Shown piece after piece: positions 1 through 27,148 of a stretch of 27,148 nt of DNA. The translations under genes were made by a program, and so were the position numbers. Source of the DNA: Deinococcales bacterium (GTDB taxonomy: Bacteria; Deinococcota; Deinococci; Deinococcales; JAAFIG01); contig JANMUC010000435.1 in NCBI GenBank assembly GCA_031391225.1, positions 1-27,148 of the forward strand, in the 5' to 3' direction. Under the pieces are notes generated by a model, which searched no databases, was not told the DNA's origin, and saw nothing but the letters and a program-made list of their open reading frames with translations. Numbering within the stretch: the first letter of the stretch is position 1; each line of letters opens with the position of its first letter.

Positions 1-1
1 A

Positions 2-1891
2 CACCCGCTTGAAACGCCACTCGAGCATTTGGAGCGCGTTTTCGAGCAAGCTGATTTGCCAGCCTTAGAAAGCCTGTTGCAAACCCGAGATGAACACGGT
101 TTTTTTCAAGGCTTGCGTGAGGTTCCAAAGACGGTGCTCAACAAACCCCTCGCCGCCAAACCTGCCAGCACCGACAGCGTTCGCGTCAACGTGCAACGCC
201 TGGACACCTTGCTCGCCCAATCAGGTGAACTGACCATTGCCAGAATCAAACTCGAGACTCGAGCCAAAAGGGTTGGCAACCTTTTAAACCGTTTGCAAAA
301 CGCCCGTAAAACCTGGCGTTCGGCGCGAGCCATGCGTAACCGACTGGCAAAAGACGTGCAAAACCCAGACCTGCAACAATTTTTGGGTTTCTTTGACCGC
401 AACGAAGACCGTTACCACCTGATGATCGAAAACCTCGAGCAACTTGTGGCAGACCTGGCGGAAGACACCGCTCAACTGCGCAGCGTCAACAGCATCATCG
501 AAAACGAAGTGCTGGCGGTGCGACTGCTGCCCGCCTCGAATTTGTTCCCCAACCTCGAGCGGTTGGTACGCGATTTAAGCCATAACCTTGGCAAAAACGC
601 CAAGCTTGAAACGATTGGCGGCGAAATAGGACTGGACCGTAAAATTCTGGACGGACTGCGCGACCCTTTAATGCATATGGTCAGAAACGCGCTCGACCAC
701 GGTTTGGAAACTTCAGAGCAGCGCCTCAAAGCAGGAAAACCCGAAATCGGCACGATCAAACTCGAGGTGCGGCAATCGGGCACTAAGATTGAAATTAGCC
801 TGACCGACGACGGCGCAGGAATCAACACCGCACGCGTGCAGCAAGTTGCCTTAGCCAAAGGCTTAATCCCAGAAAACACGGTTTTAAACCAAGAACAAAC
901 GCTCGAGTTGCTGTTCGCGCCAGGCTTTAGCACCGCCGCAACAATCACCCAAATCAGTGGACGCGGCGTCGGCATGGACGTGGTACGCGAGAACATTCGC
1001 ACTTTAAACGGCAGCATCAGCCTGCAAAGCCAAACTGGGCGCGGCTCGAGCTTCCACCTGCGCTTGCCAGCCACGCTCGCCACCAGCCGCGTGTTGGTGG
1101 TGCAAGTTGCCGACACTCGCCTTGCCATTCCTACCAACGCCATCGAACGCGTCGCCAGGGTACGTGCCAGCGACCTGCTCGAGCAAGACGGACAAGCCGC
1201 CGCGATTTTTGACGAACGCGCCATCCGCGTGACCGAATTGGCTGGTTTGCTCGAGCTGCCAAGTCGCCCCGCCTTGGACGGTTGGCGCGTGATGGTCAAT
1301 GTTGTCAGCCAAAACAAGTCGCTGTGCCTGATTGTCGATGCCTTGATTGGCGAACAAGAAATTGTGATTAAAAAACTCGGCTATCCGCTCGAGCAGGTTG
1401 CCCATTTGCAAGGCGCTGCGGTACTCGATTCTGGAATGCTCGTGCCCATTTTGAATGCCGAGATCATCATTCAAAGAGGCTTAATGCAACCCCAAGAGAT
1501 CAGTCCCAAACCTCAAAGCCTCAAAACCAAAACCCGCATTCTGGTCGTGGACGATTCGATCACCACCCGCTCCTTAGAGTGCACGATTCTCGAGAACGCC
1601 GGTTTTGAAACTCGAGTCGCCATCAACGGACTCGAAGCCCTCGAGATACTGCGCACCACAGATATTCAACTGGTGCTCTCCGATGTCGAAATGCCCTTGA
1701 TGGACGGTTTTGCCCTGACCAACGAGATTCGCAACACGGAAAAACTCAAACACCTGCCCGTGATTCTGGTCACCAGCCTGAACACGCTTGAGCACAAACA
1801 ACGCGGCGCTCAGGCAGGCGCGGACGCCTACATCATCAAAAGCGAATTTGACCAAAATGTGCTGCTCGAGACGGTCGCACGGTTGTTGTAA
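2..1891 (+). CDS. cheA: Hybrid chemosensory histidine kinase (CheA dimerisation + HATPase + CheW + C-terminal receiver; WspE/FrzE-like architecture), 5'-truncated by window edge
   Basis: Frame open from base 2. SVRVNVQRLDTLL dimerisation motif, N-box HMVRNALDHG, G1 DDGAGIN, F-box LFAPGFST, G2 SGRGVGMDVV, CheW domain, then receiver domain ILVVDDS...SDVEMPLMDG...YIIK. The Hpt domain would lie upstream of the window. Confidence 0.93.
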   Translation, partial: HPLETPLEHLERVFEQADLPALESLLQTRDEHGFFQGLREVPKTVLNKPLAAKPASTDSVRVNVQRLDTLLAQSGELTIARIKLETRAKRVGNLLNRLQNARKTWRSARAMRNRLAKDVQNPDLQQFLGFFDRNEDRYHLMIENLEQLVADLAEDTAQLRSVNSIIENEVLAVRLLPASNLFPNLERLVRDLSHNLGKNAKLETIGGEIGLDRKILDGLRDPLMHMVRNALDHGLETSEQRLKAGKPEIGTIKLEVRQSGTKIEISLTDDGAGINTARVQQVALAKGLIPENTVLNQEQTLELLFAPGFSTAATITQISGRGVGMDVVRENIRTLNGSISLQSQTGRGSSFHLRLPATLATSRVLVVQVADTRLAIPTNAIERVARVRASDLLEQDGQAAAIFDERAIRVTELAGLLELPSRPALDGWRVMVNVVSQNKSLCLIVDALIGEQEIVIKKLGYPLEQVAHLQGAAVLDSGMLVPILNAEIIIQRGLMQPQEISPKPQSLKTKTRILVVDDSITTRSLECTILENAGFETRVAINGLEALEILRTTDIQLVLSDVEMPLMDGFALTNEIRNTEKLKHLPVILVTSLNTLEHKQRGAQAGADAYIIKSEFDQNVLLETVARLL

Positions 1892-1930
1892 AAAAGTCGT
1901 TCGTCACTTGTGAAACATCCAACAACCTTC

Positions 1931-1936
1931 TACACT
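1931..1936 (+). promoter_or_regulatory. -10 box TACACT of a putative leaderless promoter for the NarL-family regulator
   Basis: TACACT-tctagc-ATG(1943); 6-nt spacing, no Shine-Dalgarno. Confidence 0.6.
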
Positions 1937-1942
1937 TCTAGC

Positions 1943-2599
1943 ATGATACGCATCTTGCTTGCCGACGACCACGCCCTGTTTCGCCAAGGACTCAAAAGCC
2001 TGCTCGAGACTGAAGCCGACCTGCGCGTGATCGGCGAAGCCCAAAACGGACGCGAAGCCGTGCGTTACGCCGCCGACACCAGACCCGACATTATTTTAAT
2101 GGACATTCAAATGCCAGAACTCGACGGGGTTCGCGCCACCCAAAGCATTCTCGAGATCAACCCGCAAGCCAGCGTGATAATCCTGACCATGTACCGCCAA
2201 GACTCTTATGTCTTTGAAGCCGTCAAAGCGGGCGCTCGAGGATACCTTTTGAAAGACGTGGACGGCACAGAATTGATTGACGCCATCCGTCACGTTTTTG
2301 AAGGCGGCACGCTCTTAGACCCCGAAATGGCAAAGAATGTGCTCGAGGATTTCCGCGTCAAAAAAGAAAGCCTGCCCGACGAAAAACGCGGCGACCTGAC
2401 CGAACGCGAAGCCGCGATTTTAAGATTGTTGGCGCAAGGCTCGAGCAACCAAGAGATTGCCCTGAAACTCAACATTTCCGAGAAAACCGTGCGCAACCGT
2501 TTGAGCGAAATTTTTGCCAAACTCCAACTCAACAACCGCACGCAAGCGGCGTTGTACGCGATTCGGGAAGGCTTGGCGAGCTTAGATGATGCCCAATGA
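1943..2599 (+). CDS. NarL/FixJ (LuxR-HTH) family response regulator
   Basis: [10 protein letters not shown]...MDIQMP..DG...YLLKD receiver plus LTEREAAIL...[21 protein letters not shown] 1943 preferred over the 1910 start because of the domain boundary and the -10 box. Confidence 0.95.
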
Positions 2600-3988
2600 T
2601 CTCATAGTTTTTGTGAGTGTATGTTCAATTAGTTCAGCTTCTTTTTGATCGGTTGAAATATGAAAAGTGTGGTCTGGTTTTGGAGACTTTCCACAAAGGA
2701 GGATATGGATTCTGTGCTCTCTTTTGCTTGGATTGTTCCTAAGATGAATGATTCTTTGTCGAGTTATTGGCAAAATACTTCCAACTAAGACAAAAAGCAT
2801 CAAAGCAAAAACAATATTCTCTGAGATCAAAGATATCGCAACGTATGAGACGATGGTAGAAAAAGCTCCAACTATCAGGAGCAGCAAAGTGATCGAATCA
2901 CTAATGTTTGTGCTTATGTCCATAGCCATCACCCGAAATCCGGAAAACTCGCGCAGCAAATACGTGTTCCCATGTGCAATCAAAACCTCGCCGTAAATGG
3001 CAATATCAGGAGTAACATATTGACCACCTGATTGAATTACGAGACGTTCTGCTTCAGTTTGTTGAATGTCAACAGTGTTAACAATAGCGTTTTTAAATGT
3101 TTCAATATCTTTTGGTCTATCTTGAATCTTAATTGCCAAAGCTTTTTCGAGCACTTGAGCAAATGCTGGATTGATATCGGGTGGAAACTCGAGCAAATTT
3201 GAGCCAAATAAACGATCTGCCGCATTTTGTGGAGGGTTTCCAGTTATTGCGTGATACAAAGTCGCTGCAAGACCATACACATCAGTGTATTCTCCAAATC
3301 TTGCTTCGTTTGCATACTGTTCAGGTGCAGCATAACCAGGTGTAATCAATTGGGTGTGTTTTGTTCTTTGGCTTGCACGAAAACGCCTTGCTGATCCAAA
3401 ATCGACCAGCACAACTCGAGCATCTTGGGTTAAGAAAATGTTGTCGGGTTTGATGTCACGGTGCAACAATCCCACGCTATGTACAACCTCGAGTGCTTTG
3501 CTTAACTTGACTGCTAATTCTTTCACGCTTTGTTCAGGTAATTTCTTTTCTCGAGCAATTTTTGCCCCCAGTGTTTCGCCCTTTAAAGCTTCCATCACCA
3601 AATACGCTGTATTATTTGCTTCAAAGACCTCGAACACTCGCACAATGCCAAGATGATTAAATCGCGTCAAAAGTTGAGCTTCTTCAAGAAACCGTGATTT
3701 GGATTCAAGAAAACCGTTTGTGCCCAAATTGTTCGGTGGTATCAAACTCGAGTTTTTACGGGTACTGCCATTGGGGAAAAGTTCTTTGATGGCAACTTCG
3801 CGCTGCAACACCATGTCTTTTGCCAAGTACGTGATGCCAAAACCGCCTTGTCCTAAAACGTGTCCAATCCGATATTTGCCCAGTATTGCGCCAGTTTGGA
3901 GTTGAAAACTTTGAATGTTTGCACCACAACTAGGACAAATCTGATCGCTCGAGGTTATGGGTGCGGCGCAATACAGACAGGAATCCAT
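2582..3988 (-). CDS. Hanks-type Ser/Thr protein kinase with N-terminal zinc ribbon and C-terminal two-TM membrane domain
   Basis: CLYC...CPSC ribbon; [31 protein letters not shown]; two hydrophobic segments near the C-terminus. Confidence 0.92.
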
Positions 3989-4178
3989 TCAGTGCCTTGT
4001 ACGAGGTCAAGCCCTAAAAAGTTGCCAAAAAATAGACTGGCTGAAATCAAAATGCTCGAGCCACCTGTTAAAAATTTGCTGACAAAGGGTTGACAAAAGC
4101 GTTTCAGACTAAGCCCGTGAAAACCAATTTATAGAACTGGTATCCACTGGTCTTGCTGCCAATCGCAGCCACCGTGGT

Positions 4179-4730
4179 TTGGCGGTTGGTTTTGGCGCTC
4201 ATCCTGATTACTGCGAGACGTACTCTGGGCGAGAAGTGTACCACGCGCCAACGGTATCTGACGGCAAAGGCGGATTTGTTCCAAACCCGAGAGTCTGCTC
4301 CGAACCTGGTGCATTTAAACGCATTGTCAACCTGCCCAAAGACCAATCGCAAGGCGTTCACACCGCCGATCCTGTGCCGCTGTTCGCCTTTGGTTCTGGC
4401 GCGAAATTGTTTCAAGGCAGCATGGATCAAACCGATATTCCAGACCGTTTTGTGCTGACCCGCACCCGCAAAACCGTGTGCTTACCGTGCGATGAAAGTG
4501 CGGATTATCCAAGTTCAATCACCGTGATTTTTCCGAATGCCGAAACCGAAGCCGTACCAGTCTCTACCGATAGCGTTTTTGTGTACTTGGCAAACGGACA
4601 AAAATTACCTGTCACAGGCGAAAAAATCAGGGTGACAGGCAAGCTCGAGTTAACCCAAAGCACCGATGAGATCACGCGGTACTCGAGTTTGGTTCAAGTA
4701 CGAAACGCAAACCTCCAAGTTCTGGAATAA
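4179..4730 (+). CDS. Hypothetical protein, C-terminal half reminiscent of DUF3299-like OB-fold proteins; start uncertain
   Basis: 183-aa ORF with RFVLT...CLPC...IRVTGKLEL pattern; no clear RBS or signal peptide in this frame. Confidence 0.45.
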   Translation: MAVGFGAHPDYCETYSGREVYHAPTVSDGKGGFVPNPRVCSEPGAFKRIVNLPKDQSQGVHTADPVPLFAFGSGAKLFQGSMDQTDIPDRFVLTRTRKTVCLPCDESADYPSSITVIFPNAETEAVPVSTDSVFVYLANGQKLPVTGEKIRVTGKLELTQSTDEITRYSSLVQVRNANLQVLE

Positions 4731-4766
4731 GCATTTTGGCGTGTGACACTCGAGCCTGAAAGTCCG

Positions 4767-4772
4767 TAAACT
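4767..4772 (+). promoter_or_regulatory. -10 box TAAACT of putative leaderless promoter (overlaps CTCGAG)
   Basis: TAAACT-CGAGCT-ATG(4779). Confidence 0.6.
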
Positions 4773-4778
4773 CGAGCT

Positions 4779-5597
4779 ATGAACATCAAATCCCTTGGTT
4801 ATCAAACAGATTTAATCTTTGCGCGTTTCTCGGGCGAAATTGTTGATAAAAACGACTACACCGTGGTTCGCACACCAAGCAACCCAACGTTTTGGTACGG
4901 TAATTACGTGTTGTTTCCCAAACCACCCGAAGCGCAAGATGTCACGCGATGGATGGAGATTTCAGCTCGAGAATTCCCAGACGCCAAACATTGCGTGATT
5001 GGTTTTGATAGCGTAAACGGCGAAATGGGCGCGGCTCGAGCCTTCGAGGCACTTGGTTTTGATGTGGTTGAAACGGTAGTCATGACCGCCAGCGAAGTTC
5101 ACACGCCACCAAAAATCAATCTTGAGGCAGAATACCGCCCGATTTTAACCAGCAAAGATTGGGAACAAGCCATTGCGCTCCGGATTGAATGCAACGATGA
5201 GCACGAACCCGAAGGTTACAAACTCTTTATCAGGCGCAAAATGCTCGAGTATCAACGCATGACCGAAGCAGGACTCGGCAACTGGTGGGGCGCGTTTTTG
5301 GACGGCAAAATGGTGAGTAGTTTGGGATTGTTCCTCGAGCATGGCGTGGGAAGGTTTCAGAGCGTCGAAACCCACGCCAATTACCGCCGCCGAGGATTGT
5401 GCGGAACGTTGGTTCATACCGCCGCCAGACACGCTTTTGAGCATCACAAGCCAAACGTGTTGGTGATGTGTGCCGACCCCGAATACCACGCCGCCAGAAT
5501 TTACGAGAGTGTCGGATTTAAACCTTCTGAGACGCAAATGGCACTCGAGCGACCACCAAAGGAAGACCAGGCATTCCGCAACTCGAGTTCCGAGTGA
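4779..5597 (+). CDS. GNAT family N-acetyltransferase
   Basis: C-terminal acetyl-CoA motif A: FQSVETHANYRRRGLCGTLV; A..IYESVGF motif B. Confidence 0.85.
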   Translation: MNIKSLGYQTDLIFARFSGEIVDKNDYTVVRTPSNPTFWYGNYVLFPKPPEAQDVTRWMEISAREFPDAKHCVIGFDSVNGEMGAARAFEALGFDVVETVVMTASEVHTPPKINLEAEYRPILTSKDWEQAIALRIECNDEHEPEGYKLFIRRKMLEYQRMTEAGLGNWWGAFLDGKMVSSLGLFLEHGVGRFQSVETHANYRRRGLCGTLVHTAARHAFEHHKPNVLVMCADPEYHAARIYESVGFKPSETQMALERPPKEDQAFRNSSSE

Positions 5598-5647
5598 AAA
5601 TCCTCGAGCCTTTGAGGGTAAAACATGAAGAATCGTTGTGCCAGAGA

Positions 5648-5705
5648 GGGTGAACACAGTTTTGAAAATAAGACGCACCTGACGGGCATTTTCGCAGGTT
5701 CACCC
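5648..5705. repeat. Nested hairpin: outer stem GGGTGAAC/GTTCACCC enclosing a 37-nt module (5659-5695) homologous to 26618-26653
   Basis: Direct inspection; inner stem GAAAAT/ATTTTC. Confidence 0.75.
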
Positions 5706-5729
5706 CTGCAGATTCCGGGCAATTCAAGG

Positions 5730-5735
5730 TAAACT
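5730..5735 (+). promoter_or_regulatory. -10 box TAAACT of putative leaderless recG promoter
   Basis: TAAACT-gattt-GTG(5741). Confidence 0.5.
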
Positions 5736-5740
5736 GATTT

Positions 5741-8083
5741 GTGCCAACCCGTGATGAACTGCGCGAACGACTGATCAAACCCCTGGCTCGAGAACTTGCA
5801 ATGGGCTGTCAGAACCGTGTGGTCACGGCGGGACTCGAGGCGTTGTTGAACAACGTCGCCCAACCGTTTCCGAAGGTACGGGAAGTGCTGGATGGTTACG
5901 GCATCATGAGCCAGACCGAGCGCGAAGAAAACCTTAAAACCGCGATTGCGCTGCTCGAGGCAGAACAAAAACCAGTCATCAATACCAAACCTGCGCCAAG
6001 CAAAAAACTCGAACTTCCACGGCTCGAGCGCACGACCTTGACACCAGATTCAGAAATTACACGGTTGCCGCTTGCACCCAGCGCACCCAAAAAACTGGCA
6101 CGACTTGGCATTAAAACCTTGCGCGACATGTTTCACAATTATCCCAGACGTTACGAAGACCGCCGACGACTGCCAGGATTTCACACCATCGAAGACGGCG
6201 CTCGAGTGACCGTGGTCGGTGCGGTGACGGACAAAACCCGTCACTCGCCTCGCAAAGGCATGTTGATTTTGAAGGCAAACTTGCGCGATGAATTTGGCAA
6301 CATGCTGTCCGCAACTTGGTTCAATCAACCTTGGGTCGAAGGGCAATTAAAAGAGGGCAACCGCCTGATTATCACGGGCAAAGCCAAACGTTTCGGGCGC
6401 AAACTCGAGCTTGCCGTCGAATATTTTGAGAACGATGATGAGGGGGGCGAGAGTTTCAGCACTGACCGCATCATCGCGGTGTATCACACTACCGAGGGTA
6501 TCTCGCAAGCCTTCATTCGCAAAGTTGCACGGCAATTGTTTGAAGCCCTACCCGAACCCGCAGATTTTCTCTCGAGCCAGCAACGCGGCATGTACAAGGT
6601 GATGCCTTACGTCCAAGCCTTACGTGAGGCGCACAATCCCAGCGAACTCGAGGAACTGGAAACTGCTTTAGAGCGCCTCAAATTTGACGAGTATTTGTTC
6701 CTCGAGCTTCGGATGCTCTTGCAGGGCGGCAGCAGTTTGGAAGGCAAACAATTTAGAGCACTCGACGAGCACATGCTCGAGTTTGAACGAATGCTGCCGT
6801 TCAAATTCACAAACGCTCAACGCCGCGCGATTCTCGAGATTGCGACTGACATGCGCGAACCCAAACAGATGGCGCGACTGATTCAAGGCGATGTCGGATC
6901 GGGCAAAACCGCCGTTGCCGCCAGTGCGCTTTATCTTGCGACTCGAGATGGTTTTCAAGGCGCGTTGATGGCTCCCACCGAAATTCTGGCGCGGCAGCAT
7001 TTCTCGAGTTTGACCAAATACTTGTACCCGCTCGGCGTGCGGGTGGAATTGCTGATTGGCGCGATGACGGGCAGAGAACGCATCGAGGCTCGAGAACGGA
7101 TCAAAAAAGGCGAGGTTGACGTGATCGTTGGCACGTCGGCACTGATTCAAGAAGGCGTCGAATTTGCACGGCTTGGCTTGGCTGTGGTGGACGAGGAGCA
7201 CCGCTTTGGGGTACAACAGCGCCGCGCCCTCCTCGCAAACCGTCCTGACGTGATCGTGATGAGCGCCACGCCCATTCCGCGCAGCCTTGCCCTGACCGCT
7301 TACGGTGACCTCGAGCTGACGACCATTGACGAACTGCCGCCAGGACGAACGCCAATTCAAACCAAACTTTTAATGGACACGCACCGCCGCCAAGCCTACA
7401 GCTTTGTCATGAAACAGATTCTCGAGGGACGCCAAGCTTTCGTGGTCGCGCCGCTGATCGAAGAATCCGAAAAAATGACCGAGATTCTGGCAGCCACGCA
7501 ACTCTCCGAAGACCTCAAACAGATTCTGCCAGACGCTCGAGTTGAACTTTTGCACGGCAAAATGCACCCCAGCGAAAAAGACGCGATCATGAACCGATTT
7601 CGCGCCCAAGAGTTCGATCTGCTCGTCAGTACCACCGTGATTGAAGTCGGCGTGGACGTTCCCAACGCCAGCATCATGGTGATCGAAAATGCCGAGCGCT
7701 TCGGGTTGTCGCAACTGCATCAACTTCGCGGGCGGGTTGGGCGCGGCGACAAGCAAAGTTATTGTGTGCTGATTGCGGGCGATCACAGCAAGAAAACCAG
7801 AGAACGTTTAAAAGTCATTGAAGGCACAACCGACGGTTTTAAAATTGCCGAAGCCGATTTGCGCCTTCGCGGACCAGGCGAGCTGCGCGGCACGCGGCAA
7901 AGCGGAATGCCAGATTTAAAACTGGGCGATTTGACCAGGGATACCGAAATTATTGAACAAGCCAGAAATCTTGCCAAAAGTATTCTGGAAGCAGACCCAA
8001 TGCTCGAGAAACCCGTGAATGCGCTGTTGAAAGTAGAATTGCAAGCTCGAGCGGAACAGGTTTCGATTCGAGATGTGATTTAA
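5741..8083 (+). CDS. recG: ATP-dependent DNA helicase RecG
   Basis: YPRRYED, wedge OB domain (WFNQPW), [80 protein letters not shown]. Confidence 0.98.
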
Positions 8084-8181
8084 GGATTTTGAGTACAATT
8101 TGAGTTTCAAAATGTGCTCTCAATACAGGAAAGTAAAATTTAATACGTGATTTCGCTGATGTGAAGTACGTTCAAAAACCT

Positions 8182-8187
8182 TAAACT
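8182..8187 (+). promoter_or_regulatory. -10 box TAAACT of putative leaderless promoter (overlaps CTCGAG)
   Basis: TAAACT-CGAGTC-ATG(8194). Confidence 0.6.
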
Positions 8188-8193
8188 CGAGTC

Positions 8194-8823: not shown

Positions 8824-8854
8824 AAATGCTGATGCAAGAAAAATCCCAAGACTT

Positions 8855-8860
8855 TAAACT
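8855..8860 (+). promoter_or_regulatory. -10 box TAAACT of putative leaderless promoter (overlaps CTCGAG)
   Basis: TAAACT-CGAGCC-ATG(8867). Confidence 0.6.
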
Positions 8861-8866
8861 CGAGCC

Positions 8867-9319: not shown

Positions 9320-9376
9320 CCGCATGTATCTCGAGCTTCACGTTCAATTCAATCTCGAGCGTTAGACTCAATTCTT

Positions 9377-10585: not shown

Positions 10586-10588
10586 CAC

Positions 10589-18410: not shown

Positions 18411-18413
18411 ATC

Positions 18414-18662: not shown

Positions 18663-19824
18663 ACCAAAACTACGCAATGCCAAAGGCGCGGGTGGCAGTC
18701 CATTTCTTCGCAAAGATGGGCGTTGGACTGCCTCGGTCACAATTGGCTACCGTGACGGCAAACAAATCAAAAAATGGGTGTACGGCTCGAGTCAGCGCGA
18801 GGTCGTAGAACAGCTTCGAGCATTGCATGGTCAAGCCTCGAGTGCCATTTTACCGAACCGTGAAAACTTGAATCTTGGTATCTGGCTTGATCGCTTTTCT
18901 GATGCTCGAGGGCGTGACCTCAAGCCCAGCACTCGGGATATGTACAAACACTATGTCAGACATTGGAAACGCGAGTTAGGCGACACACCTTTAGCCCGAG
19001 TCAATCCTTTGATGGTTCGGGCGGCGCTCGTGCGTTTTTCTGATGCCAACTTGGGTGACTCTTACCGCAAAGCGCTTTACAACTTTATCAACGCTGCTTT
19101 GAATGAAGCTGTAAAGCTCGACATACTCGAGGTGAATCCTGTTGTCAAAGTGGACAGACCAAAGGTAAAAGTCACCAACACTCGAGGTGCTTGGACTGAA
19201 GAGGAAGCCCGTGCCTTTCTCGAGGTTGCGGCGGGTCATGCGCTCGAGCCGTTGTTCTCGCTTTGTTTGGTGTGTGGCTTGCGAATTGGTGAGGCGCTGG
19301 CGTTGCACTGGAACGCTTTGCAGGGTGATTCTTTGAACATTGATTTCAGCCTAAACCGTTCCAAGGATGGCGGCATGTTCACCACTCCGAAATGGGGTTC
19401 ATTTGGTTCATTACCCTTGCATACAGAAACCCTTGCCATGCTCGAGCAGCACCGCCTTAAATTTGAGAAACGCAAAACCCTAGCAGTTGAAGCGGGTTTA
19501 TGGAAAGAACACGCTTTGATGTTCCCTTCAGAAGTTGGAACGCCCCTTAATTATCGTAACGTTTTACGTGTCTTTGACGGTTTCGTTTTGAAAGCTGGCA
19601 TCCCGCGTTATGGTGGTTCTCACACCTTCAGGCGTACTTTTGTCACTTTGGCAATGGGGCAACTCGAGCCGAAGGAAGTCCAAGAAATTGTCAGGCATAA
19701 AAGTTCAGTTATCACGATGGATGTCTATGCACGAGTTCGTAGTTCAAGACGCAAGAAACTTGGTTTAAGCCTCACGTCTTTGGTGACTCTGAATGACACC
19801 TCAGAAGTCGGTGAACGCCAATGA
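18652..19824 (+). CDS. int: Tyrosine recombinase / integrase
   Basis: N-terminal arm-binding-like region (RKDGRW.A.V), SAM-like core, catalytic GLRIGE, SHTFRR, VRH, TMDVYA; ends 94 bp before the right att repeat. Confidence 0.97.
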   Translation: MARKPKLRNAKGAGGSPFLRKDGRWTASVTIGYRDGKQIKKWVYGSSQREVVEQLRALHGQASSAILPNRENLNLGIWLDRFSDARGRDLKPSTRDMYKHYVRHWKRELGDTPLARVNPLMVRAALVRFSDANLGDSYRKALYNFINAALNEAVKLDILEVNPVVKVDRPKVKVTNTRGAWTEEEARAFLEVAAGHALEPLFSLCLVCGLRIGEALALHWNALQGDSLNIDFSLNRSKDGGMFTTPKWGSFGSLPLHTETLAMLEQHRLKFEKRKTLAVEAGLWKEHALMFPSEVGTPLNYRNVLRVFDGFVLKAGIPRYGGSHTFRRTFVTLAMGQLEPKEVQEIVRHKSSVITMDVYARVRSSRRKKLGLSLTSLVTLNDTSEVGERQ

Positions 19825-19918
19825 TCGGTAAAACTCAGTACCTCTGCAATCATCAAAATATGCTGACTGCACGGCATTTTCTCGAGTTTGGCGTTTTCTC
19901 TTTTGTTGTTGGAATTCG

Positions 19919-19963
19919 CTGGGGGTCAAGTGGTCGTGAGTTCAAATCTCGCCACCCCGACCA
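19919..19963 (+). repeat. Right attachment-site direct repeat (displaced tRNA-Pro 3' half)
   Basis: Identical to 11822-11866. Confidence 0.97.
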
Positions 19964-19968
19964 AGAGA

Positions 19969-20000
19969 AAACCCCGTTTTGAACGGGGTTTCTTTATTTT
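19969..20000 (+). terminator. Intrinsic terminator, probably the original host tRNA-Pro terminator
   Basis: AAACCCCGTT-TTG-AACGGGGTTT then CTTTATTTT, immediately after the right repeat. Confidence 0.8.
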
Positions 20001-20160
20001 TCGAGCGGCAAGCACACCAAATTATTAATACCATGTACCTGGTGTGTGACCAAGGTCCAAGCAAACGGGTACAAAATCTGCAAAGAATCGCCTTCTCGAG
20101 CCTTACAACTTTGTAGCCCAGATTGTTATTGTTTGCCCTCAAACCAACCAACATAAGATC

Positions 20161-21195
20161 ATGCAAACAACACAACAACCTGTCGCTCGAGGGAACAACC
20201 CCTCTCCGCTGTCCAGTAGCAGCGCCATGTGGTTGGGTATTCTGTTCAGCACTGCTTTTACCGCCTTCATCTGGGCGCTCGGTAACCGACTTTCCAGCGT
20301 TCCTCATGCCCCAGATACGGGCGCAGCCCATTACTACTGGAAACTGATTGACCCGACTTTTATTTCTCGAGCCTCGGCTTGGGGTTTGTACTTGGCGCAT
20401 CAATTTGTTTCTTGGGGACTTATTTTTTACGCTCAAACCAGGGTCAAAAAGTACACCAACGGTTTGCACCCAGTCAACATTTGGGCACTGGGCGCGAACG
20501 CTGCATTTATTGTGCTGCACTTGTTGCAAACCCATGTTTGGTATGACGGTCTGGCGCAAGACGTCTCGATTTTCTCGAGCCAAGGCAGTGTGATTGTGTT
20601 GTTGGTATTTATTTTAATCATGGAAAATCCGCGCCGTGGTTTGTTCTTTGGCATCAAAGCACCGCTTGCCAAAGACGCGGTGGGTTTTGTCAGAAAGTAT
20701 CACGGTTATTTCTTTTCCTGGGCAGCCATTTACACGTTTTGGTATCACCCGATGGAAGCCACCCCAGGGCATTTGATCGGCTTTTTTTACATGTTTTTCT
20801 TGATGCTGCAAGGTAGTTTGTTTTTCACCCGCATTCATACCAACAAATACTGGACGTTTGTGCAAGAATTCTTGGTGCTGATTCACGGCACATTGGTCGC
20901 CGTGTTTCAAGGCGCGGGCTTGTGGTCCATGTTCTTGTTTGGCTTTGGCGGCATTTTCATCATCACGCAAATGTACGGGCTTGGACTCTCGAGAATCGCG
21001 CGTTTTGCCCTGATTGGCGTGTACGCCCTGGCAGTCACTTTCGTTTACAGCGGACGTGGTTTGGGTAAACTCAACGAGATCATTCGGATTCCAGCCATTG
21101 ATTACTTGCTGGTGTTTGCCTTAACGGGTTTGATTGCAGGTCCAATGTGGCTCTACAAACGTTTTGCTGTCAAAGCCCCGGCTTTGCCGAGCTAA
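20161..21195 (+). CDS. Multi-pass membrane protein of unknown function
   Basis: About 9-10 hydrophobic segments with several intramembrane or interface His residues (HQF, HLLQTH, YHGY, WYHP, GHL, IHG). Confidence 0.8.
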   Translation: MQTTQQPVARGNNPSPLSSSSAMWLGILFSTAFTAFIWALGNRLSSVPHAPDTGAAHYYWKLIDPTFISRASAWGLYLAHQFVSWGLIFYAQTRVKKYTNGLHPVNIWALGANAAFIVLHLLQTHVWYDGLAQDVSIFSSQGSVIVLLVFILIMENPRRGLFFGIKAPLAKDAVGFVRKYHGYFFSWAAIYTFWYHPMEATPGHLIGFFYMFFLMLQGSLFFTRIHTNKYWTFVQEFLVLIHGTLVAVFQGAGLWSMFLFGFGGIFIITQMYGLGLSRIARFALIGVYALAVTFVYSGRGLGKLNEIIRIPAIDYLLVFALTGLIAGPMWLYKRFAVKAPALPS

Positions 21196-21211
21196 CGTTT
21201 GAACCTCGAGT

Positions 21212-22048
21212 TTACTTGACCGCACCTTGGGTTAAGCCCCGAATCAATTGTCTCGAGAAAATAATGTACAACACCAGAATTGGCAGCACCGCCAGCGTTA
21301 GGGCGGCAAGCACGGCGTTCCAATCGCTGATGAATTGCCCCAAAAACACTTGAGCGCCCAAAATCACTGTTTTGGTGGACTCGAGCGGCGCAAGAATTAA
21401 CGGAAACCAGAGGTCGTTCCAGACTGGAATCATGTTGAAAATCGCAACCGTGCCAAGCGCTGGACGCACCAGAGGCAGCACCAGCCAGAAGACGCGGTAT
21501 TCGCTCGCGCCGTCAATGCGGGCGGCATCTTTGAGTTCTTTGGGAATGGTCTTAAAGAAGGCAGTCAGCACAAAGGTTGCCAGCGGAATGCCGCTGGCGA
21601 CGTAGACCAAAATCAGGGCGAACAGCGTGTTGTTGATGCCGAGTGCGACCATCATTTTGAGTAAACTGACCGTGCCAAGCCGAATCGGAACCATAATGCC
21701 GATTGCCAAGTAAATGCCCAAGAGCGGATTGCCACGAAAATCGTATTCGGCAAGGGCAAACGAAGCCATCGCGCTCGAGCTTAAAATCAAAACCAGTGAA
21801 ATGATCGTGACGATCAAAGAATTCAGAAAATACTGTTCAAAATGGGCGCTCGAGAAAACGGTTTGATAACCGACCAGATCAAAGGTGCTGGGCGTTGGTA
21901 GCGCCAGTGGCGAACCAAAAATAGCAAGGCGGGCTTTGGTCGAGTTCATGACGATCAGTAATGTTGGAAATAATGCAATGAAGGTGTAAATCAGTAGCAC
22001 GGTATGAACGCCAGCGTGGGAGAAAAATGTTTTGGTTTTGGGATTCAT
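21212..22048 (-). CDS. Carbohydrate ABC transporter permease (MalG-like)
   Basis: EAA loop IPKELKDAARIDGASE; WNDLWFPL; six TM segments. Confidence 0.95.
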   Translation of the reverse strand: MNPKTKTFFSHAGVHTVLLIYTFIALFPTLLIVMNSTKARLAIFGSPLALPTPSTFDLVGYQTVFSSAHFEQYFLNSLIVTIISLVLILSSSAMASFALAEYDFRGNPLLGIYLAIGIMVPIRLGTVSLLKMMVALGINNTLFALILVYVASGIPLATFVLTAFFKTIPKELKDAARIDGASEYRVFWLVLPLVRPALGTVAIFNMIPVWNDLWFPLILAPLESTKTVILGAQVFLGQFISDWNAVLAALTLAVLPILVLYIIFSRQLIRGLTQGAVK

Positions 22049-23001
22049 AATTCCACGTTCTCGATTCGACGTTGAAAACCAAACAAGTAAATCAAAACCC
22101 CAATCAAAATAATCACCAGCATGATTCCAGCCACGGCAGAACCCAAGAACGGATCACCGCCTTGAAGTTGAAAACCAAAGAAAGTACGGTAAAAAAAAGT
22201 TCCCAGCAAATCAGTCGAGAAACTCGGACCTGCCAGCGCACCTTGGGCGCTATAAACCAGATCAAACGCGTTGAAATTTCCAACAAAAGTCAGCACGCCA
22301 ACAATGCCAGCCGTCGGCAGCAACAACGGAAATTGAATTTTCCAAAAAATTGTCCAAGCGTTCGCGCCGTCCACCCGTGCCGCCTCGAGAAACTCTTCAG
22401 GGATGCGAATAATACTTGCCAGAAAAAGCATCATTGGAATGCCGACGTACTGCCAAACCGAAATCAGCGACAGGGTAATCAATGCCGAATTTTCGATGCC
22501 CAGATTCATTAAATTAAGCAGTGGAATGTTGCTCGAGATACCCCAGAGCGGGCTGAGAATCAACTTCCAAGCGAAACCGACAATCACCACCGAAAGCACC
22601 GTTGGCGTGAAGATTAGGGTGCGATACACAACGCTGCCACGAATTTTCAAACTGAGCAAATACGCCAGCAGCAAACCCACCGGATTTTGCACGCACATGT
22701 GAATCACAAAAAAAATCAGATTGTTCTTTAACGCATTCCACAACCGACTCGAGAGGGTCGGATCGGTCAACAACTCGCGGTAATTCTGAAAGCCCACCCA
22801 ATGCACAATATTTTTTTCATCGCTCGAGAATAACGACAAACGTAAACTGTCCAGCATTGGGAAAATCATAAAAGCCGTGTAAATCAGCACGGCTGGGAAA
22901 AGAAAAACCAGAATGTGAACTGGGAATTTCTGGATGAATTTCCGCAGAAAAACCAAAATGCGATTGGGGAAATTTTGATTTGCTTGCTGTTTCGAAATCA
23001 T
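22045..23001 (-). CDS. Carbohydrate ABC transporter permease (MalF-like)
   Basis: VGFQNY..L..D; EAA loop IPEEFLEAARVDGAN; FNAFDLVY. Confidence 0.95.
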   Translation of the reverse strand: MISKQQANQNFPNRILVFLRKFIQKFPVHILVFLFPAVLIYTAFMIFPMLDSLRLSLFSSDEKNIVHWVGFQNYRELLTDPTLSSRLWNALKNNLIFFVIHMCVQNPVGLLLAYLLSLKIRGSVVYRTLIFTPTVLSVVIVGFAWKLILSPLWGISSNIPLLNLMNLGIENSALITLSLISVWQYVGIPMMLFLASIIRIPEEFLEAARVDGANAWTIFWKIQFPLLLPTAGIVGVLTFVGNFNAFDLVYSAQGALAGPSFSTDLLGTFFYRTFFGFQLQGGDPFLGSAVAGIMLVIILIGVLIYLFGFQRRIENVEL

Positions 23002-23070
23002 ATCGTCTTCCTCAAGCCATAGTTAAAGCGTGGAGGGGAATAAAATTCGTCTCTCGAGCTGGGAATTAAA

Positions 23071-23116
23071 CTCCCTTCTCCCGATGTTGGGAGAAGGGCT
23101 GGGGATGAGGGTAGAC
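23071..23116 (+). repeat. REP-like palindromic element (46 bp)
   Basis: CCCTTCTCCC-gatgtt-GGGAGAAGGG followed by CTGGGGATGAGGGTAGAC; inverted copy at 26590-26671. Confidence 0.8.
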
Positions 23117-23122
23117 CAAGTT

Positions 23123-24385
23123 TTACTTCTTGGGTTTGTACCAAGCCTCGAGGTTCTTTTGCACCATATCGGCAGCAGCTTTTGGTGTCATTGTACCGTT
23201 CAGAACGCCAGCGCTGGCAGCCCAAAGGTCATTTTCGTTGTTGAGCTTTTCATTGCGTGACAAAATCTGGTAGCTCGAGCGAATTGTGCTCTCACAGTCA
23301 TCACGCCAACCCACGAATTCTTGTGCCAGTGGGTCTTTGAGCTTGATCTTGGCTTTGGAGAGCGAGAAGAAACCAGGCAGCGCATTGGCGTAAATCTCGG
23401 CAAATTCTGGGGTGGTCATCCACTCGAGGAACTTCTTGGCGGATTCTTTGTTCTTGCTGTTGGCGTTCAAGCCCGTGGCAATGTCGGTGTGGTCGCTGAT
23501 GTAGCACTTTTTCGCGCCCGCTGGAAGTGGTGGTTTGAACGCGCCGAGTTCAAATTTGGCGTTGGCTCGGAAGCCCGAAATTTCCCATGAACCGCTGGGG
23601 TAAATCGCACCACGTCCCAACGAAAACAGGTTTTGGGCGTCTGGATACGAAACGCTTTGATAACCTTGCTCGAGGTACGGCGTCCATTTTGCCAGGGCTT
23701 GGAAGGTGCGTAAAAAGCCGCCCGTGTTGTACTTGGCTTTGCCTGCAATCAAGCCCAAACGACCTGTCTCGCCTTGCCAGTAGTTGGGTCCAATGTTTTG
23801 AAAGCCAACTGTGGCACTTTCCCATTGGTCTTTTGTGCCCATGACCAGTGGTGCGTACTTGCCGTTTTTCTTGACGGTTGCGAGCAGTTTGTAAAACTCA
23901 GCTTCAGTTTTTGGTTCGGTCAATTTGAGTTCGGCAAAGATCGCTTTGTTGTAGATAAAGCCGTGAATCACACTTGCCATTGGCACACAAAAAGTATTTT
24001 TACCATCATCGGTTTGCCAAGCACTTTTGGCGACATTCGAGAAATTGCTCATGCCAGCAATGTCATTCAGGCTTGCCAGGTTTCCTTTGTTGTACAACTC
24101 GAGCGACTTGTCAAACGGACGACAGGTAATCAGATCGCCTGCGCTGCCACCTTGAAGCTTGGCGTCCAGGGCGCTGTTGTACTCGGCTGGAGCACTTGGC
24201 GCGAAGGTCACTTCAATGTCAGGAAATTTTTTATTGAACGCTGGAATAATCTCGTTCTGCCAGATTTTCAGGTCGTCGTTGCGCCAAGATTCAATACTGA
24301 TCTTGGTTTTACCCTGACCGAACGCGAGTCCCGCAAGTGCCACGCCACCTGCGAGTAAAAGGAAAACCGATGCCGATTTCTTCAT
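23123..24385 (-). CDS. Sugar ABC transporter substrate-binding protein (family 1)
   Basis: RBS AAGGAGG; signal peptide without lipobox Cys; AGDLITCRPFD, FIYNK.IF..L, GAIYPSGSWE. Confidence 0.93.
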   Translation of the reverse strand: MKKSASVFLLLAGGVALAGLAFGQGKTKISIESWRNDDLKIWQNEIIPAFNKKFPDIEVTFAPSAPAEYNSALDAKLQGGSAGDLITCRPFDKSLELYNKGNLASLNDIAGMSNFSNVAKSAWQTDDGKNTFCVPMASVIHGFIYNKAIFAELKLTEPKTEAEFYKLLATVKKNGKYAPLVMGTKDQWESATVGFQNIGPNYWQGETGRLGLIAGKAKYNTGGFLRTFQALAKWTPYLEQGYQSVSYPDAQNLFSLGRGAIYPSGSWEISGFRANAKFELGAFKPPLPAGAKKCYISDHTDIATGLNANSKNKESAKKFLEWMTTPEFAEIYANALPGFFSLSKAKIKLKDPLAQEFVGWRDDCESTIRSSYQILSRNEKLNNENDLWAASAGVLNGTMTPKAAADMVQKNLEAWYKPKK

Positions 24386-24512
24386 CCCGTGCCTCCTTGT
24401 GGGCGTGTTCCGCCCCGTTCTGATGTTGAGAATATCAGCCTATCTCGAGGTATGCTGAAAACGCAAATCAAATTGTAATATCTGAATAACTTCGTTTTTG
24501 ACTGGAGGGATT

Positions 24513-25499
24513 GTGCGCGTTGGAATCGTCGGGACTGGTTCAATGGGGTCTGTACACGCCCAAGCCTGGCTTCAGGCGGGTGTAGAGCTTTCTGGTGTGA
24601 TCTCAGGGCATCTCGAGCACGCCCAAACCTTCGCCCAAAAACATGAGATCCAAGCTTTCTCGAGGTTGGAGGAAATGCTCGAGGTGGTGGATGTGCTCGA
24701 TATTTGCGCCCCAACGCATTTGCACCGCGATATGACCGAAGCTGCCGCCAAGGCTGGCAAGCACGTGATCTGCGAAAAACCGATTGCGTTGACCCTCAAA
24801 GATTCAAAAGCCATGATCGAAGTTTGCTCGAGTCAGAACGTGCGGTTGTTTATCGCCCAAGTCGTCAGGTTTTTCCCGCAGTATCGTGCCGCTCAAGAAA
24901 TTCTTGCCAGTGGTCAACTCGGAAACCTTGGCGTGTTGCGCCTGAAACGCGCTGGGTATCAACCAAGCTTGAACTGGTTTTTAGACGAAACAAAATCTGG
25001 CGGCATGGTCATGGATTTGATGATTCACGATTTCGATTACGCCCTCTGGATTGGTGGCAAAGTATCTCGAGTTTATGCCACCTCCGCTCGAGCCTCTAAC
25101 CCAACCTCGAGCGGAGATTACGCCCTTGTAACCCTGGGTTTTGAATCTGGCGCGATGGCACAAATTGAGGGTGGTTGGTGTTACCCAAAAGGTACGTTTC
25201 GTACCAGCCTGGACATTGCTGGCAGCCAGGGTCTTATCGAATGGCATTCGGACAACTCGAGTACCATCAAAAGTTTCCTCGAGCCTCAAAATTCGGGTGT
25301 TGGTGCGGTTGGGATTCCTAGTTCAGTGCTGACCGAAGACCCGTACACCACTCAGATCAAACATTTCAAACATGCCATCACCACGAACACGCCCTTTGAT
25401 GTCACGCCCGAAGATGCCCTGGCAGCTTTAGAAATCGCCCTCGCCGCTCGAGAATCCCTGAAATCAGGTCGCGCCGTGCATTTGGGAAGCTCGAGATGA
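24513..25499 (+). CDS. Gfo/Idh/MocA family oxidoreductase
   Basis: RBS GGAGG before GTG 24513; VGIVGTGSMG Rossmann fold, PTHLH, CEKP, DLMIHD.D. Confidence 0.93.
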   Translation: MRVGIVGTGSMGSVHAQAWLQAGVELSGVISGHLEHAQTFAQKHEIQAFSRLEEMLEVVDVLDICAPTHLHRDMTEAAAKAGKHVICEKPIALTLKDSKAMIEVCSSQNVRLFIAQVVRFFPQYRAAQEILASGQLGNLGVLRLKRAGYQPSLNWFLDETKSGGMVMDLMIHDFDYALWIGGKVSRVYATSARASNPTSSGDYALVTLGFESGAMAQIEGGWCYPKGTFRTSLDIAGSQGLIEWHSDNSSTIKSFLEPQNSGVGAVGIPSSVLTEDPYTTQIKHFKHAITTNTPFDVTPEDALAALEIALAARESLKSGRAVHLGSSR

Positions 25500-26497
25500 G
25501 GGTCGGTATCATGAGCTTCGCGCACCTTCACGCCGAAGGGTATATCGGTTTGCTGCGCTCAATGCCCAACGTTGAAGTTATCGGATTCTCTGACCTTGAC
25601 CCAACTCGAGGCATGAAAATAGCGCAACAATACTCGAGCCACTGGTATCCAAGCCACGAAACGCTGCTCGAGCAAGACCTTGACGCCGTGATTGTCTGCA
25701 CCGAAAACGCCACGCGCCGCGAAGCCGTCGAAATGGCGGCTCGAGCGGGCTGTCATATTTTGTGCGAGAAACCGATTTCGGTCACGCTCGAGGATGCCCT
25801 GGCAATGCGTGATGCGGTCACAAGCTCTGGCGTGAATTTCATGACCGCCTTCCCAATGCGTTTTGACCCGAGCCTCCAAATTTTGCGCGAACGCATTCAA
25901 GCTGGCGATCTTGGGCGCGTCTACGGCATGAACGGCATCAACCATTCAGAAATTCCCAAAGCCCACCGCGCCTGGTTCGCAGACCGTGAACTCGCTGGTG
26001 GCGGCGCGGTCATGGATCACACCGTTCACCTGACCGACCTCTACCGCTGGATTTTCGACACCGAAATTCTCGAGGTGTACGCCGAAGTCAGCAACCCGTT
26101 TTACCCAGACGTGGACGTGGACACTGCTGGAATAATCACCCTCAAACTTGAGAATGGCATGTTCGCAGGGATTGATTGCAGTTGGTCGCGCCCAACCACT
26201 TACCCACGCTGGGGACACCTGAAACTCGAGGTGGTGGGCGAACGCGGGTCGCTCGAGATTGATGCTTTCGCGCAACATTTAACCGTCACCAGCAGCAAAC
26301 CAGTCATCAGAAACCCAAACTGGCACGGTTGGGGCAGCGATCCGAACAAAGCCATGCTGACAGAATTTTTTGCCAGCATTACCGAGGCTCGAGAACCCAG
26401 CGTGACCTGGAAAGATGGGTTTGAGGCTTTAAGGGTGGCGTTGACCTGTTATGAGTCAGCGGGGATTGGGCAACCTGTGAGGCTCGAGAATTTGTAG
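25496..26497 (+). CDS. Gfo/Idh/MocA family oxidoreductase
   Basis: ATGA coupling; CEKP, GGGAVMDHTVHLTD. Confidence 0.92.
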   Translation: MRVGIMSFAHLHAEGYIGLLRSMPNVEVIGFSDLDPTRGMKIAQQYSSHWYPSHETLLEQDLDAVIVCTENATRREAVEMAARAGCHILCEKPISVTLEDALAMRDAVTSSGVNFMTAFPMRFDPSLQILRERIQAGDLGRVYGMNGINHSEIPKAHRAWFADRELAGGGAVMDHTVHLTDLYRWIFDTEILEVYAEVSNPFYPDVDVDTAGIITLKLENGMFAGIDCSWSRPTTYPRWGHLKLEVVGERGSLEIDAFAQHLTVTSSKPVIRNPNWHGWGSDPNKAMLTEFFASITEAREPSVTWKDGFEALRVALTCYESAGIGQPVRLENL

Positions 26498-26589
26498 TTT
26501 CAAGAATCAAAAAAGAGTAGGGACAAGCCCATACACTCCGACTCAATCATATTTTCTATTTCTCAAACACAAAAATCTGCAATTGCCCT

Positions 26590-26671
26590 GTCTACCCTCA
26601 TCCCCAACCCTTCTCCCGTCTTGACCATAAAACGCACCTGCGGGCATGGTCGCAACATCAGGAGAAGGGAG
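26590..26671 (-). repeat. Second copy of the 46-bp REP-like element (44/46 identical) interrupted by a 36-nt hairpin module (26618-26653)
   Basis: Direct comparison with the reverse complement of 23071-23116. Confidence 0.85.
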
Positions 26672-26708
26672 TTCGATTCTTTTACACGTGTGACTCAAGG
26701 TTTTTCGT

Positions 26709-26759
26709 CCTTCTCCCGCCATGCGGGAGAAGGTGGCGAGCTTGCTCGCCCGATGAGGG
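26709..26759 (+). repeat. REP-like double hairpin
   Basis: CCTTCTCCCGC-cat-GCGGGAGAAGG, GGCGAGC-tt-GCTCGCC, cGATGAGGG. Confidence 0.75.
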
Positions 26760-26861
26760 CTTCAGGTGAGATACAGCATATTTTCTTGTGTCAGAAACGA
26801 GTTCTTGTATTATTAAGTCGGAGTCAATGGAACAAGCCTTACCCCTACGGGAATTGCTTGT

Positions 26862-26887
26862 GTAGGGTGCGACCCTCGTGGTCGCCC
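26862..26887 (+). repeat. GTAG-type REP
   Basis: GTAG-GGT-GCGACC-ctcgt-GGTCGC-CC. Confidence 0.65.
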
Positions 26888-26917
26888 TTGCCACCAAATC
26901 GGTAAGTTATTAAATGC

Positions 26918-27133
26918 CTAAAGATTCGAGTAAGTGGCATAAGCGACACATCTGCTGAGTTTCTGCCAAAAGTCGAGTTCGTCCTGTTCGACTTCAAATC
27001 GTATTAATGGGTCAGTTTTTTGGTCACCTTTTCTCGCCCAATACACAAGAGCCTCAAAATCAGTGCGGTATGTCCAGTTCGCATGGGCAATTGCATTTCG
27101 TAACGCACGAATACGAGTGGTAAGTACCAACAC
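26918..27133 (-). pseudogene. Possible C-terminal remnant of a HEPN-domain protein
   Basis: LRNAIAH (RxxxxH) motif; frame closed by TAG immediately upstream of the GTG, so a frameshifted or truncated gene if real. Confidence 0.4.
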
Positions 27134-27148
27134 CTAAATAAGTTAAAC

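Follow-up and report, generated by a model that had tools for sequence, protein, structure and literature searches.

Introduction

The cyanobacterial HIP1 sequence, a highly iterated palindrome (HIP), has gone unexplained for thirty years and, to our knowledge, every known case of a HIP lies in one phylum and is accompanied by a methylase. Here we describe the iteration of the palindrome CTCGAG in a 27,148-nt stretch of DNA from a Deinococcales bacterium of the phylum Deinococcota (contig JANMUC010000435.1 of assembly GCA_031391225.1; the whole of this stretch is referred to below as the window), in an 8.1-kb integrative element that the window carries, and in the genomes of the family to which the organism belongs. 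HIP1 (GCGATCGC) and the alternate cyanobacterial HIPs are short GC-containing palindromes that occur clade-wide, in all reading frames and in intergenic DNA (PMC4390886, PMC5861425), and CTCGAG is like them in each of these respects. HIPs are 15-300-fold over-represented, are kept between related genomes above other words and are evenly spaced, likewise as we observed for CTCGAG; the distribution of HIP1 is also reported to be periodic at 10-90 kb (PMC5861425). HIP1 has been linked to transformation and self-recognition was recently proposed for it (bioRxiv 10.1101/2024.09.10.611283, PMC13756078), and a Chi-like role has been suggested as well (bioRxiv 10.1101/2024.09.10.611283). In our literature searches, no publication connected CTCGAG with iterated palindromes or with Deinococcales.

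Results

Abundance of CTCGAG in the window and in the source genome

1-27148 (no strand): CTCGAG palindrome copies, n = 187, from counts with dinucleotide-preserving and codon-preserving shuffles

The initial annotation of the window had estimated about 185-190 CTCGAG sites, with roughly 7 per kb to the left of the element, 7.5 within it and 6 to its right, and had read them as a HIP1-like palindrome iterated in all frames and between genes for reasons other than codon usage. Exact counting gave 187 sites (6.9/kb); the left flank (1-11821) has 7.11 per kb, the element (11822-19963) 7.49 and the right flank (19964-27148) 5.85. CTCGAG was by far the commonest hexamer of the window, the next palindrome being AAATTT (n = 18), and dinucleotide-preserving shuffles produced only 5.0 ± 1.9 copies (maximum 10), corresponding to a 37-fold excess. 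The copies within genes were spread over the three reading frames (88, 41 and 39), a further 19 were fully intergenic (7.9/kb of spacer), and codon-preserving shuffling reduced the 168 genic copies to 20.5 ± 3.8, bearing out the initial annotation on each of these points. Kilobase stretches of the window were matched without differences by contigs of independent freshwater-sediment metagenome assemblies from a second study and the window is therefore not an assembly artefact. Among these contigs there were only 23 variable positions over the window, too few for statistics, and none of them lay within a CTCGAG. Contigs from all four metagenome runs contained a variant at 904-908 that is without three single bases (904, 906 and 908); it adjoins the CTCGAG at 902, inside a cheA-like gene, and probably reflects either strain variation or ambiguous alignment.

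The same excess was evident in the source assembly (5.17 Mb, 848 contigs, 50.4% GC), which contains 33,079 copies of CTCGAG (6.4/kb). Genome-wide observed/expected (O/E) counts, which the initial annotation had called for, revealed a 25.7-fold excess over base composition and a 74-fold excess over a second-order Markov model with the motif masked from the background. For a codon-level null we permuted synonymous codons within each of 4,718 genes (longest-ORF based calls), a procedure that keeps the proteins and the per-gene codon usage, the latter being itself inflated by the motif. On this null, 28,265 genic copies were observed versus approximately 3,400 after shuffling (about 8-fold), and the excess held in every frame (6.6-13-fold; CTC GAG frame: 16,665 versus about 2,500; other frames: 4,976 versus about 415 and 6,624 versus about 510). 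Spacers contained 7.2 copies per kb versus 6.3 per kb in genes. Codon or amino-acid usage as the cause is thus ruled out by synonymous shuffling.

The excess is confined to the hexamer itself. The other 15 NTCGAN hexamers had 0-16 copies each in the window and 28-2,299 each in the genome, which rules out TCGA as the true word and leaves CTCGAG as the annotation had it. One-mismatch variants of CTCGAG were near normal (O/E 0.76-2.35), with the transition neighbours most frequent, and the deamination products CTTGAG and CTCAAG were not depleted. The flanks of the sites were nearly uninformative, apart from a weak AAG/CTT preference, and 8-base palindromic extensions were under-represented (CCTCGAGG: O/E 0.32); the word therefore represents neither a longer repeat nor a hairpin family, and both of these explanations were discarded. 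We conclude that CTCGAG is almost certainly a real, hyper-iterated DNA word of this lineage. Separately, we observed 29 genomic occurrences of TAAACTCGAGnnATG (in the window at 4767, 8182 and 8855) and an ATG two bases downstream of TAAACTCGAG in 5.8% of cases, the background rate being about 1%. Of the 33,079 sites, a few dozen therefore seem to serve also as the -10 box of leaderless genes.

Distribution across Deinococcales

We used the recG gene of the window as a marker for placing the organism and for comparing site positions with those of its relatives.

5741-8083 (+): recG gene, 19 CTCGAG (Pfam RecG_wedge, DEAD, Helicase_C and RecG_dom3_C)

The RecG protein was 95-97% identical to that of uncultured Deinococcales metagenome-assembled genomes (MAGs) from glacier-fed and other streams. 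Identity fell to about 72-75% with other uncultured Deinococcales, about 62% with Deinococcus and about 54% with Trueperaceae. In every uncultured relative with at least 71% identity, CTCGAG was the top hexamer of the RecG neighbourhood (4.7-9.0/kb, at a GC content of 44-61%), and the Deinococcus RecG loci contained almost none. Within recG, other genera retained 25-44% of the CTCGAG sites, compared with 11-16% of other hexamers, and Deinococcus retained 0% of the sites.

Counting CTCGAG in 151 whole genomes from the order Deinococcales revealed that all 19 genomes of the window's family, representing five genera, carry 4.3-6.8 CTCGAG per kb, with approximately 0.3-3.4/kb in other families of the order and between 37 and 942 copies in total in each of 35 Deinococcus genomes. 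Over the sister families taken together, density ranged from 0.01 to 3.4/kb. On the codon-preserving null, O/E was 5.3-9.0 in the window's family, 1.6 in Trueperaceae and 0.11 in Deinococcus. Raw density alone is a poor guide here: high-GC actinobacterial and phage DNA reached 3-7 CTCGAG per kb but with a codon-preserving excess of 1.8-2.5 only, indicating that what is unusual is the excess at moderate GC and not the density. A scan of IMG/VR for triple-site clusters returned, among the matches listed, only high-GC phages, whose density is explained by codon usage. Prophages were also sought, to see whether the force acts on phage DNA, and no HK97-type capsid gene was found in the 19 family genomes. 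We noticed that Deinococcus avoids CTCGAG (only 1% of its Leu-Glu pairs are spelled with it) along with GAGCTC, CTGCAG, GTCGAC and CCCGGG, and that, CTCGAG excepted, avoidance of these palindromes is stronger still in the window's family.

Although 18 of the 19 family genomes are incomplete MAGs, one member is a complete single-contig chromosome of 5.09 Mb with the same excess, and this chromosome together with the independent metagenome contigs excludes assembly and binning artefacts. More generally, we consider the chance next to negligible that the phenomenon has a trivial cause, be it codon or amino-acid usage, a bias towards TCGA, a family of dispersed repeats, or an artefact of assembly or binning. 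It is true that codon usage alone gives 3-7 CTCGAG per kb in high-GC DNA and that MAG binning by oligonucleotide frequency could drop word-poor contigs. Nevertheless, the codon-preserving excess is 8-9-fold here versus 1.6-2.5-fold in the high-GC controls, the remaining NTCGAN words are ordinary, the flanks say almost nothing, and the excess recurs both on a complete chromosome and in a window that independent assemblies reproduce.

Codon choice and the proteome

In the source genome 73% of Leu-Glu pairs are spelled CTCGAG, when context-free codon usage predicts 3.2% (the product of the CTC share of Leu not before Glu, 11.9%, and the GAG share of Glu not after Leu, 27.2%). Where the amino acids permit CTCGAG in the remaining two frames, 46-48% of positions are filled. 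Leu-Glu was the most over-represented dipeptide of the proteome (O/E 2.34), with values of 2.1-2.2 in other family members, 1.43 in Trueperaceae and 1.10 in Deinococcus. The excess of Ser-Ser, on the other hand, was common to all groups compared and is not caused by the motif. Conservation of motif-encoded Leu-Glu was 51% versus 48% for other Leu-Glu. We also observed that gaps of 21 and 24 nt between CTCGAG sites (304 and 281 cases) exceed the plateau of about 245 at other multiples of three, a surplus that may reflect heptad-spaced Leu-Glu in coiled coils.

Turnover and spacing of sites

The fate of individual sites was followed in orthologues defined as reciprocal best hits (230 same-genus pairs, 86% amino-acid identity; 172 other-genus pairs, 60%). 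Within the genus, CTC was unchanged in 91% of cases inside the motif versus 63% outside, and GAG in 94% versus 75%. Similarly, DNA alignments within the genus showed CTCGAG retention of 79% in coding and 73% in non-coding sequence, versus 45% and 44% for other hexamers. After correction for multiple hits, motif positions evolved about 5-fold more slowly than comparable synonymous positions, which under a standard mutation-selection-drift model (our own calculation) yields a scaled coefficient (of selection or conversion) of about 2.7. Equilibrium counts (CTCGAG:CTCGAA, 14,094:1,140; CTCGAG:CTTGAG, 14,094:740), set against background codon ratios, gave an independent value of 3.1-3.5; these estimates of the scaled advantage presuppose equilibrium and take no account of codon-usage selection acting on the codons used for comparison. 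Between genera, occupancy of conserved Leu-Glu positions by CTCGAG was independent (odds ratio 1.17, p = 0.5), a pattern consistent with pressure on site density rather than with functional positions that are fixed, and frames 1 and 2 kept an occupancy odds ratio of about 5.

To judge the spacing of sites (mean gap 151 bp), we filled synonymously permissive positions in long genes at random at the observed per-frame occupancy. Compared with this null, the observed gaps were more even at short range (coefficient of variation 0.89 versus 1.03; z = -20), with a deficit of gaps below 20 bp (3.4% versus 10.6%; z = -42) as well as of gaps above 500 bp (2.2% versus 3.1%; z = -12). A gap of exactly 6 never occurs, because the avoided word GAGCTC would arise.

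The force on CTCGAG acts on the DNA itself and not on proteins or codons, in genes and spacers alike. It is weak per site (scaled advantage about 3) yet sufficient to settle how 73% of Leu-Glu pairs are spelled and to double this dipeptide, and it is persistent, genome-wide and restoring, single sites turning over slowly; it saturates locally, close pairs and long gaps being both under-represented; and it is old enough for five genera to share, with recent imports not yet reached.

A force of this kind could be a functionless molecular drive, in which biased repair or gene conversion (e.g., heteroduplex correction between copies of a polyploid genome) turns one-off variants into CTCGAG faster than mutation destroys the word. 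Such a drive would readily account for a weak and uniform force per site in genes and spacers, for positions that turn over between genera, for a cost to proteins in the form of Leu-Glu doubling, and for transition one-off variants as the commonest neighbours, as is expected for a mutation-conversion balance. Nonetheless, a drive acting independently on each site predicts neither the avoidance of nearby sites nor the deficit of long gaps, the force has remained stable over five genera at 44-61% GC, and our searches (described below) found no Vsr-type or other word-specific repair enzyme; we regard a functionless drive as unlikely. Those same two features of the spacing, that is, strong exclusion below 20-50 bp (approximately a protein footprint) and few long gaps, together with the evenness overall, would suit a word bound by an abundant protein that organises the nucleoid or chromosome, as Xu et al. 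(2018) read HIP1, with selection keeping a minimum density of sites. The strictness of the hexamer and the rarity of longer palindromes make a hairpin role unlikely and a dimeric protein site plausible. However, the protein would be a hypothetical one, and short-range exclusion also follows from GAGCTC avoidance and possibly from the instability of close repeats, and a nucleoid protein seems to us an even less probable explanation than a drive.

The tRNA-Pro element and imported genes

The window carries an integrated element with the following features.

11790-11866 (+): tRNA-Pro(GGG), found with ARAGORN; the 45 bases at its 3' end (11822-11866) form the left attachment repeat
11867-19963 (+): integrative rolling-circle-Rep element, 8.1 kb; right attachment repeat at 19919-19963
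12684-13754 (+): replication initiator (Rep), 8 CTCGAG (REP_ORF2-G2P family, Pfam PF23343, E = 1.6e-14)
18652-19824 (+): tyrosine integrase, 9 CTCGAG (Pfam Phage_integrase, E = 7e-13)

The attachment repeats at 11822-11866 and 19919-19963 form a perfect 45-bp direct repeat, and an independent sediment metagenome contig (run X2) joins position 19918 to 11822, representing the circular or tandem form of the element. The element (11822-19963) contains 61 CTCGAG (7.5/kb), which is the density of the host. Homologues of Rep were found in four of the five other genomes of the genus (89-94% identity) and in one genome of a second genus (65%). Outside the family, a search of the 151 genomes yielded two marginal partial matches (19-25 bits) in Trueperaceae-side genomes, and IMG/VR contained no relatives of this Rep. 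The Rep-related loci carry 4.9-8.4 CTCGAG per kb. These observations support the conclusion that the element is restricted to the CTCGAG-rich family and hence native or long resident, as the initial annotation had argued from its host-level density.

Recent arrivals looked different. Three imported methylase genes of evidently recent foreign origin had no CTCGAG in 1,945, 1,035 and 975 bp, and the 27 genes without the word, out of 2,014 genes of at least 900 nt, had a mean GC content of 40% versus 52% for all long genes. The word thus offers a practical clock for foreign DNA, with 5-8 CTCGAG per kb in native or long-resident DNA and none in fresh imports. One three-gene cassette (C440:1-1945) encodes a small protein with a weak MmeI_Mtase match, an Eco57I-type methylase of about 520 amino acids and a T5orf172/ResIII protein of about 850 amino acids; copies in Bacteroidota, Verrucomicrobia and many metagenomes share 65-82% identity with it, and the cassette's lack of CTCGAG marks it as a recently imported defence-like module.

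Search for a methylase, nuclease or repair enzyme

The initial annotation had favoured a methylation- or repair-driven mechanism and had pointed to an orphan CTCGAG methyltransferase as the enzyme to look for. The source genome encodes many DNA methylases, and every family member has several. We clustered matches to PF00145, PF02384, PF07669, PF01555 and PF02086 from the source genome and its best relatives, including the complete chromosome. No orthologous methylase group spans the family in these five Pfam families or in PF05063, a result at the level of Pfam detection that leaves room for non-orthologous enzymes of the same specificity. The complete 5.09-Mb genome has no PF01555 gene, one family genome that is 91% complete has no C5 methylase, and MT-A70 was present in 1 of the 19 genomes. 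The XhoI-family nuclease (PF04555) was absent from all 19 family genomes and from the 36 Deinococcaceae genomes searched, of which 35 were Deinococcus. In 5 of 23 genomes of a sister family, XhoI-family nuclease genes are convergently paired with a 340-aa PF01555 methylase (L213:1198-3095, L214:464-2145), and these genomes have ordinary CTCGAG counts. This partner methylase gave only weak partial matches in the window's family and none in three genomes, the complete one among them. As for repair enzymes, Vsr was not found in the source genome and MutH was present in 2 of the 19 family genomes, and both were rejected as a word-specific repair system. Neither the methylation nor the repair part of the proposed mechanism thus found its enzyme in these searches.

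Several individual methylases were considered as the CTCGAG enzyme and rejected. The Eco57I-type methylase of the C440 cassette is mobile, is 65-82% identical to copies in other phyla, is not shared by the family and itself lacks CTCGAG. The C5 methylases are variable across the family, MT-A70 is confined to a single genome, and divergent D12-like ORFs of two other genera have no homologue in the source genome. A 285-aa D12 methylase (on contig C256) matches M.CbeI (PDB 7M6B, E = 5e-94), which its CASP14 providers describe as an N4-cytosine methyltransferase of the alpha class that is required to transform C. bescii (PMC8616854). The C256 methylase (L192:1399-3368, minus strand) overlaps a conserved 377-aa ORF without a Pfam match, which is probably its nuclease; the pair carries 5.1 CTCGAG per kb and looks long resident. 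We take CbeI to be a HaeIII isoschizomer acting on GGCC, and this CbeI-like pair fits the near-absence of GGCC, which is among the most depleted words of the genome (443 sites, O/E 0.02). A second D12 methylase, of 280-294 amino acids (C699:5357-7287; L196:323-2253), adjoins a SacI-family endonuclease (PF09566), a system that matches the near-absence of GAGCTC, another of the most depleted words (25 sites genome-wide and 0-25 in most family genomes). Both D12 methylases conserved in the genus are thus paired with a system for another word, CbeI-like (GGCC) in one case and SacI-like (GAGCTC) in the other. The avoided words have recognisable restriction systems and the enriched CTCGAG has none.

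These results bear on the proposal that CTCGAG is a methylation-linked word, following Elhai's model for HIP1, in which an orphan CTCGAG methyltransferase would mark the sites for strand choice in mismatch repair, replication control or methyl-dependent recombination, and selection for enough marks would raise their density. Cyanobacterial HIPs do go with a cognate methylase (PMC4390886), CTCGAG methylases exist (e.g., an m5C CTCGAG enzyme in Halorubrum; PMC8112702), each family member has several methylases of unassigned specificity, and the spacing of about 150 bp with its deficit of long gaps would suit a strand-discrimination signal. On the other side stand the lack of a family-wide orthologous methylase in the six Pfam families, the genomes devoid of PF01555 or C5 enzymes, the weak and patchy matches to the XhoI partner, the rarity of MutH, the failure to find Vsr in the source genome, the undepleted deamination products CTTGAG and CTCAAG, and the assignment of the genus-conserved D12 methylases to other systems. 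We consider a methylation-linked word improbable on this evidence, to about the same degree as a functionless drive.

Discussion

The reading that we rank first, with a probability of roughly 0.35, is that CTCGAG may serve as a self-recognition word in DNA uptake or recombination. Under this proposal, a DNA-transaction system of the host would read CTCGAG as a mark of its 'own' DNA, the likeliest reader would be DNA uptake and/or recombination during natural transformation, and new sites would spread across the population by way of preferential uptake or recombination of fragments that bear CTCGAG. We rank it first because three published signatures of uptake sequences are reproduced here, namely a doubled peptide, absence from new genes and unchanged amino-acid conservation (PMC2817400). 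The ComEC uptake channel is encoded in 18 of the 19 family genomes. A more far-reaching form of the proposal, in which the word would be read by the uptake or recombination machinery independently of methylation, would be the first six-base palindromic signal of this type and would exceed in density every other iterated word known from bacterial genomes, is more doubtful than the general one. If self-recognition were true, the word would be strong enough to have rewritten a proteome, while the sister genus Deinococcus purges CTCGAG.

Several observations weigh against self-recognition. DNA uptake in Thermus and Deinococcus is generally held to be indifferent to sequence, and the presence of ComEC is non-discriminating, since the channel is equally present in Deinococcus, which is without the word, and in Thermus controls. 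Known uptake sequences are non-palindromic, have 9-12 bases and occur about once per kb, whereas CTCGAG is a 6-base palindrome at 6.4/kb. The deficit of sites less than 50 bp apart looks more like a protein footprint or the avoidance of short repeats than like uptake on the scale of fragments. Furthermore, the effect of HIP1 on transformation depends on methylation, and here the searches of the family genomes found no methylase for the word. Finally, a functionless conversion drive fits the same data about as well.

Whichever mechanism is at work, the window's family illustrates that a weak DNA-level force can bend proteins, Leu-Glu having become the most over-represented dipeptide of the proteome. 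It also invites comparison with four known kinds of short word. Restriction-modification systems of the XhoI/PaeR7I type have the same target, CTCGAG. The targets of resident restriction systems are normally avoided, as are GGCC and GAGCTC here, whereas CTCGAG is enriched, and the 19 genomes have no XhoI-family nuclease. Chi-type hotspots are likewise over-represented short words read by a DNA-processing machine, but Chi is asymmetric, strand-skewed and far rarer, and a palindrome such as CTCGAG carries no orientation.

The uptake signal sequences (USS) of Pasteurellaceae and the DNA uptake sequences (DUS) of Neisseriaceae resemble CTCGAG in that they are genome-wide, occur in all frames and approximately double the peptides that they encode (PMC2817400, PMC7811141). 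They are also absent from recently acquired genes, their motif amino acids are as conserved as others, and they are compatible with a weak population-level drive. Unlike CTCGAG, they are asymmetric words of 9-12 bases at about 1/kb and are often paired in terminators, and their uptake bias has been shown experimentally.

The closest likeness is to the HIPs, as the initial annotation had recognised, given a strictly hexamer-specific excess in all frames and in spacers across a clade. CTCGAG differs from HIP1 in having 6 bases instead of 8, in belonging to Deinococcota instead of cyanobacteria and in being about 6-fold denser than a typical HIP (about 1/kb). HIPs go with a cognate methylase and none was found for CTCGAG in the family genomes; HIP1 sites are reported to be conserved between genomes, whereas the occupancy of Leu-Glu positions by CTCGAG is independent between genera. 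Here, then, is a second, independent and much denser case of the HIP type, in Deinococcota and apparently without a shared methylase, against which one can ask which features of such words are general. The link of iterated palindromes with a methylase appears to be incidental, and the features that CTCGAG shares with such words are even spacing, conservation, distortion of the proteome and absence from imported genes.

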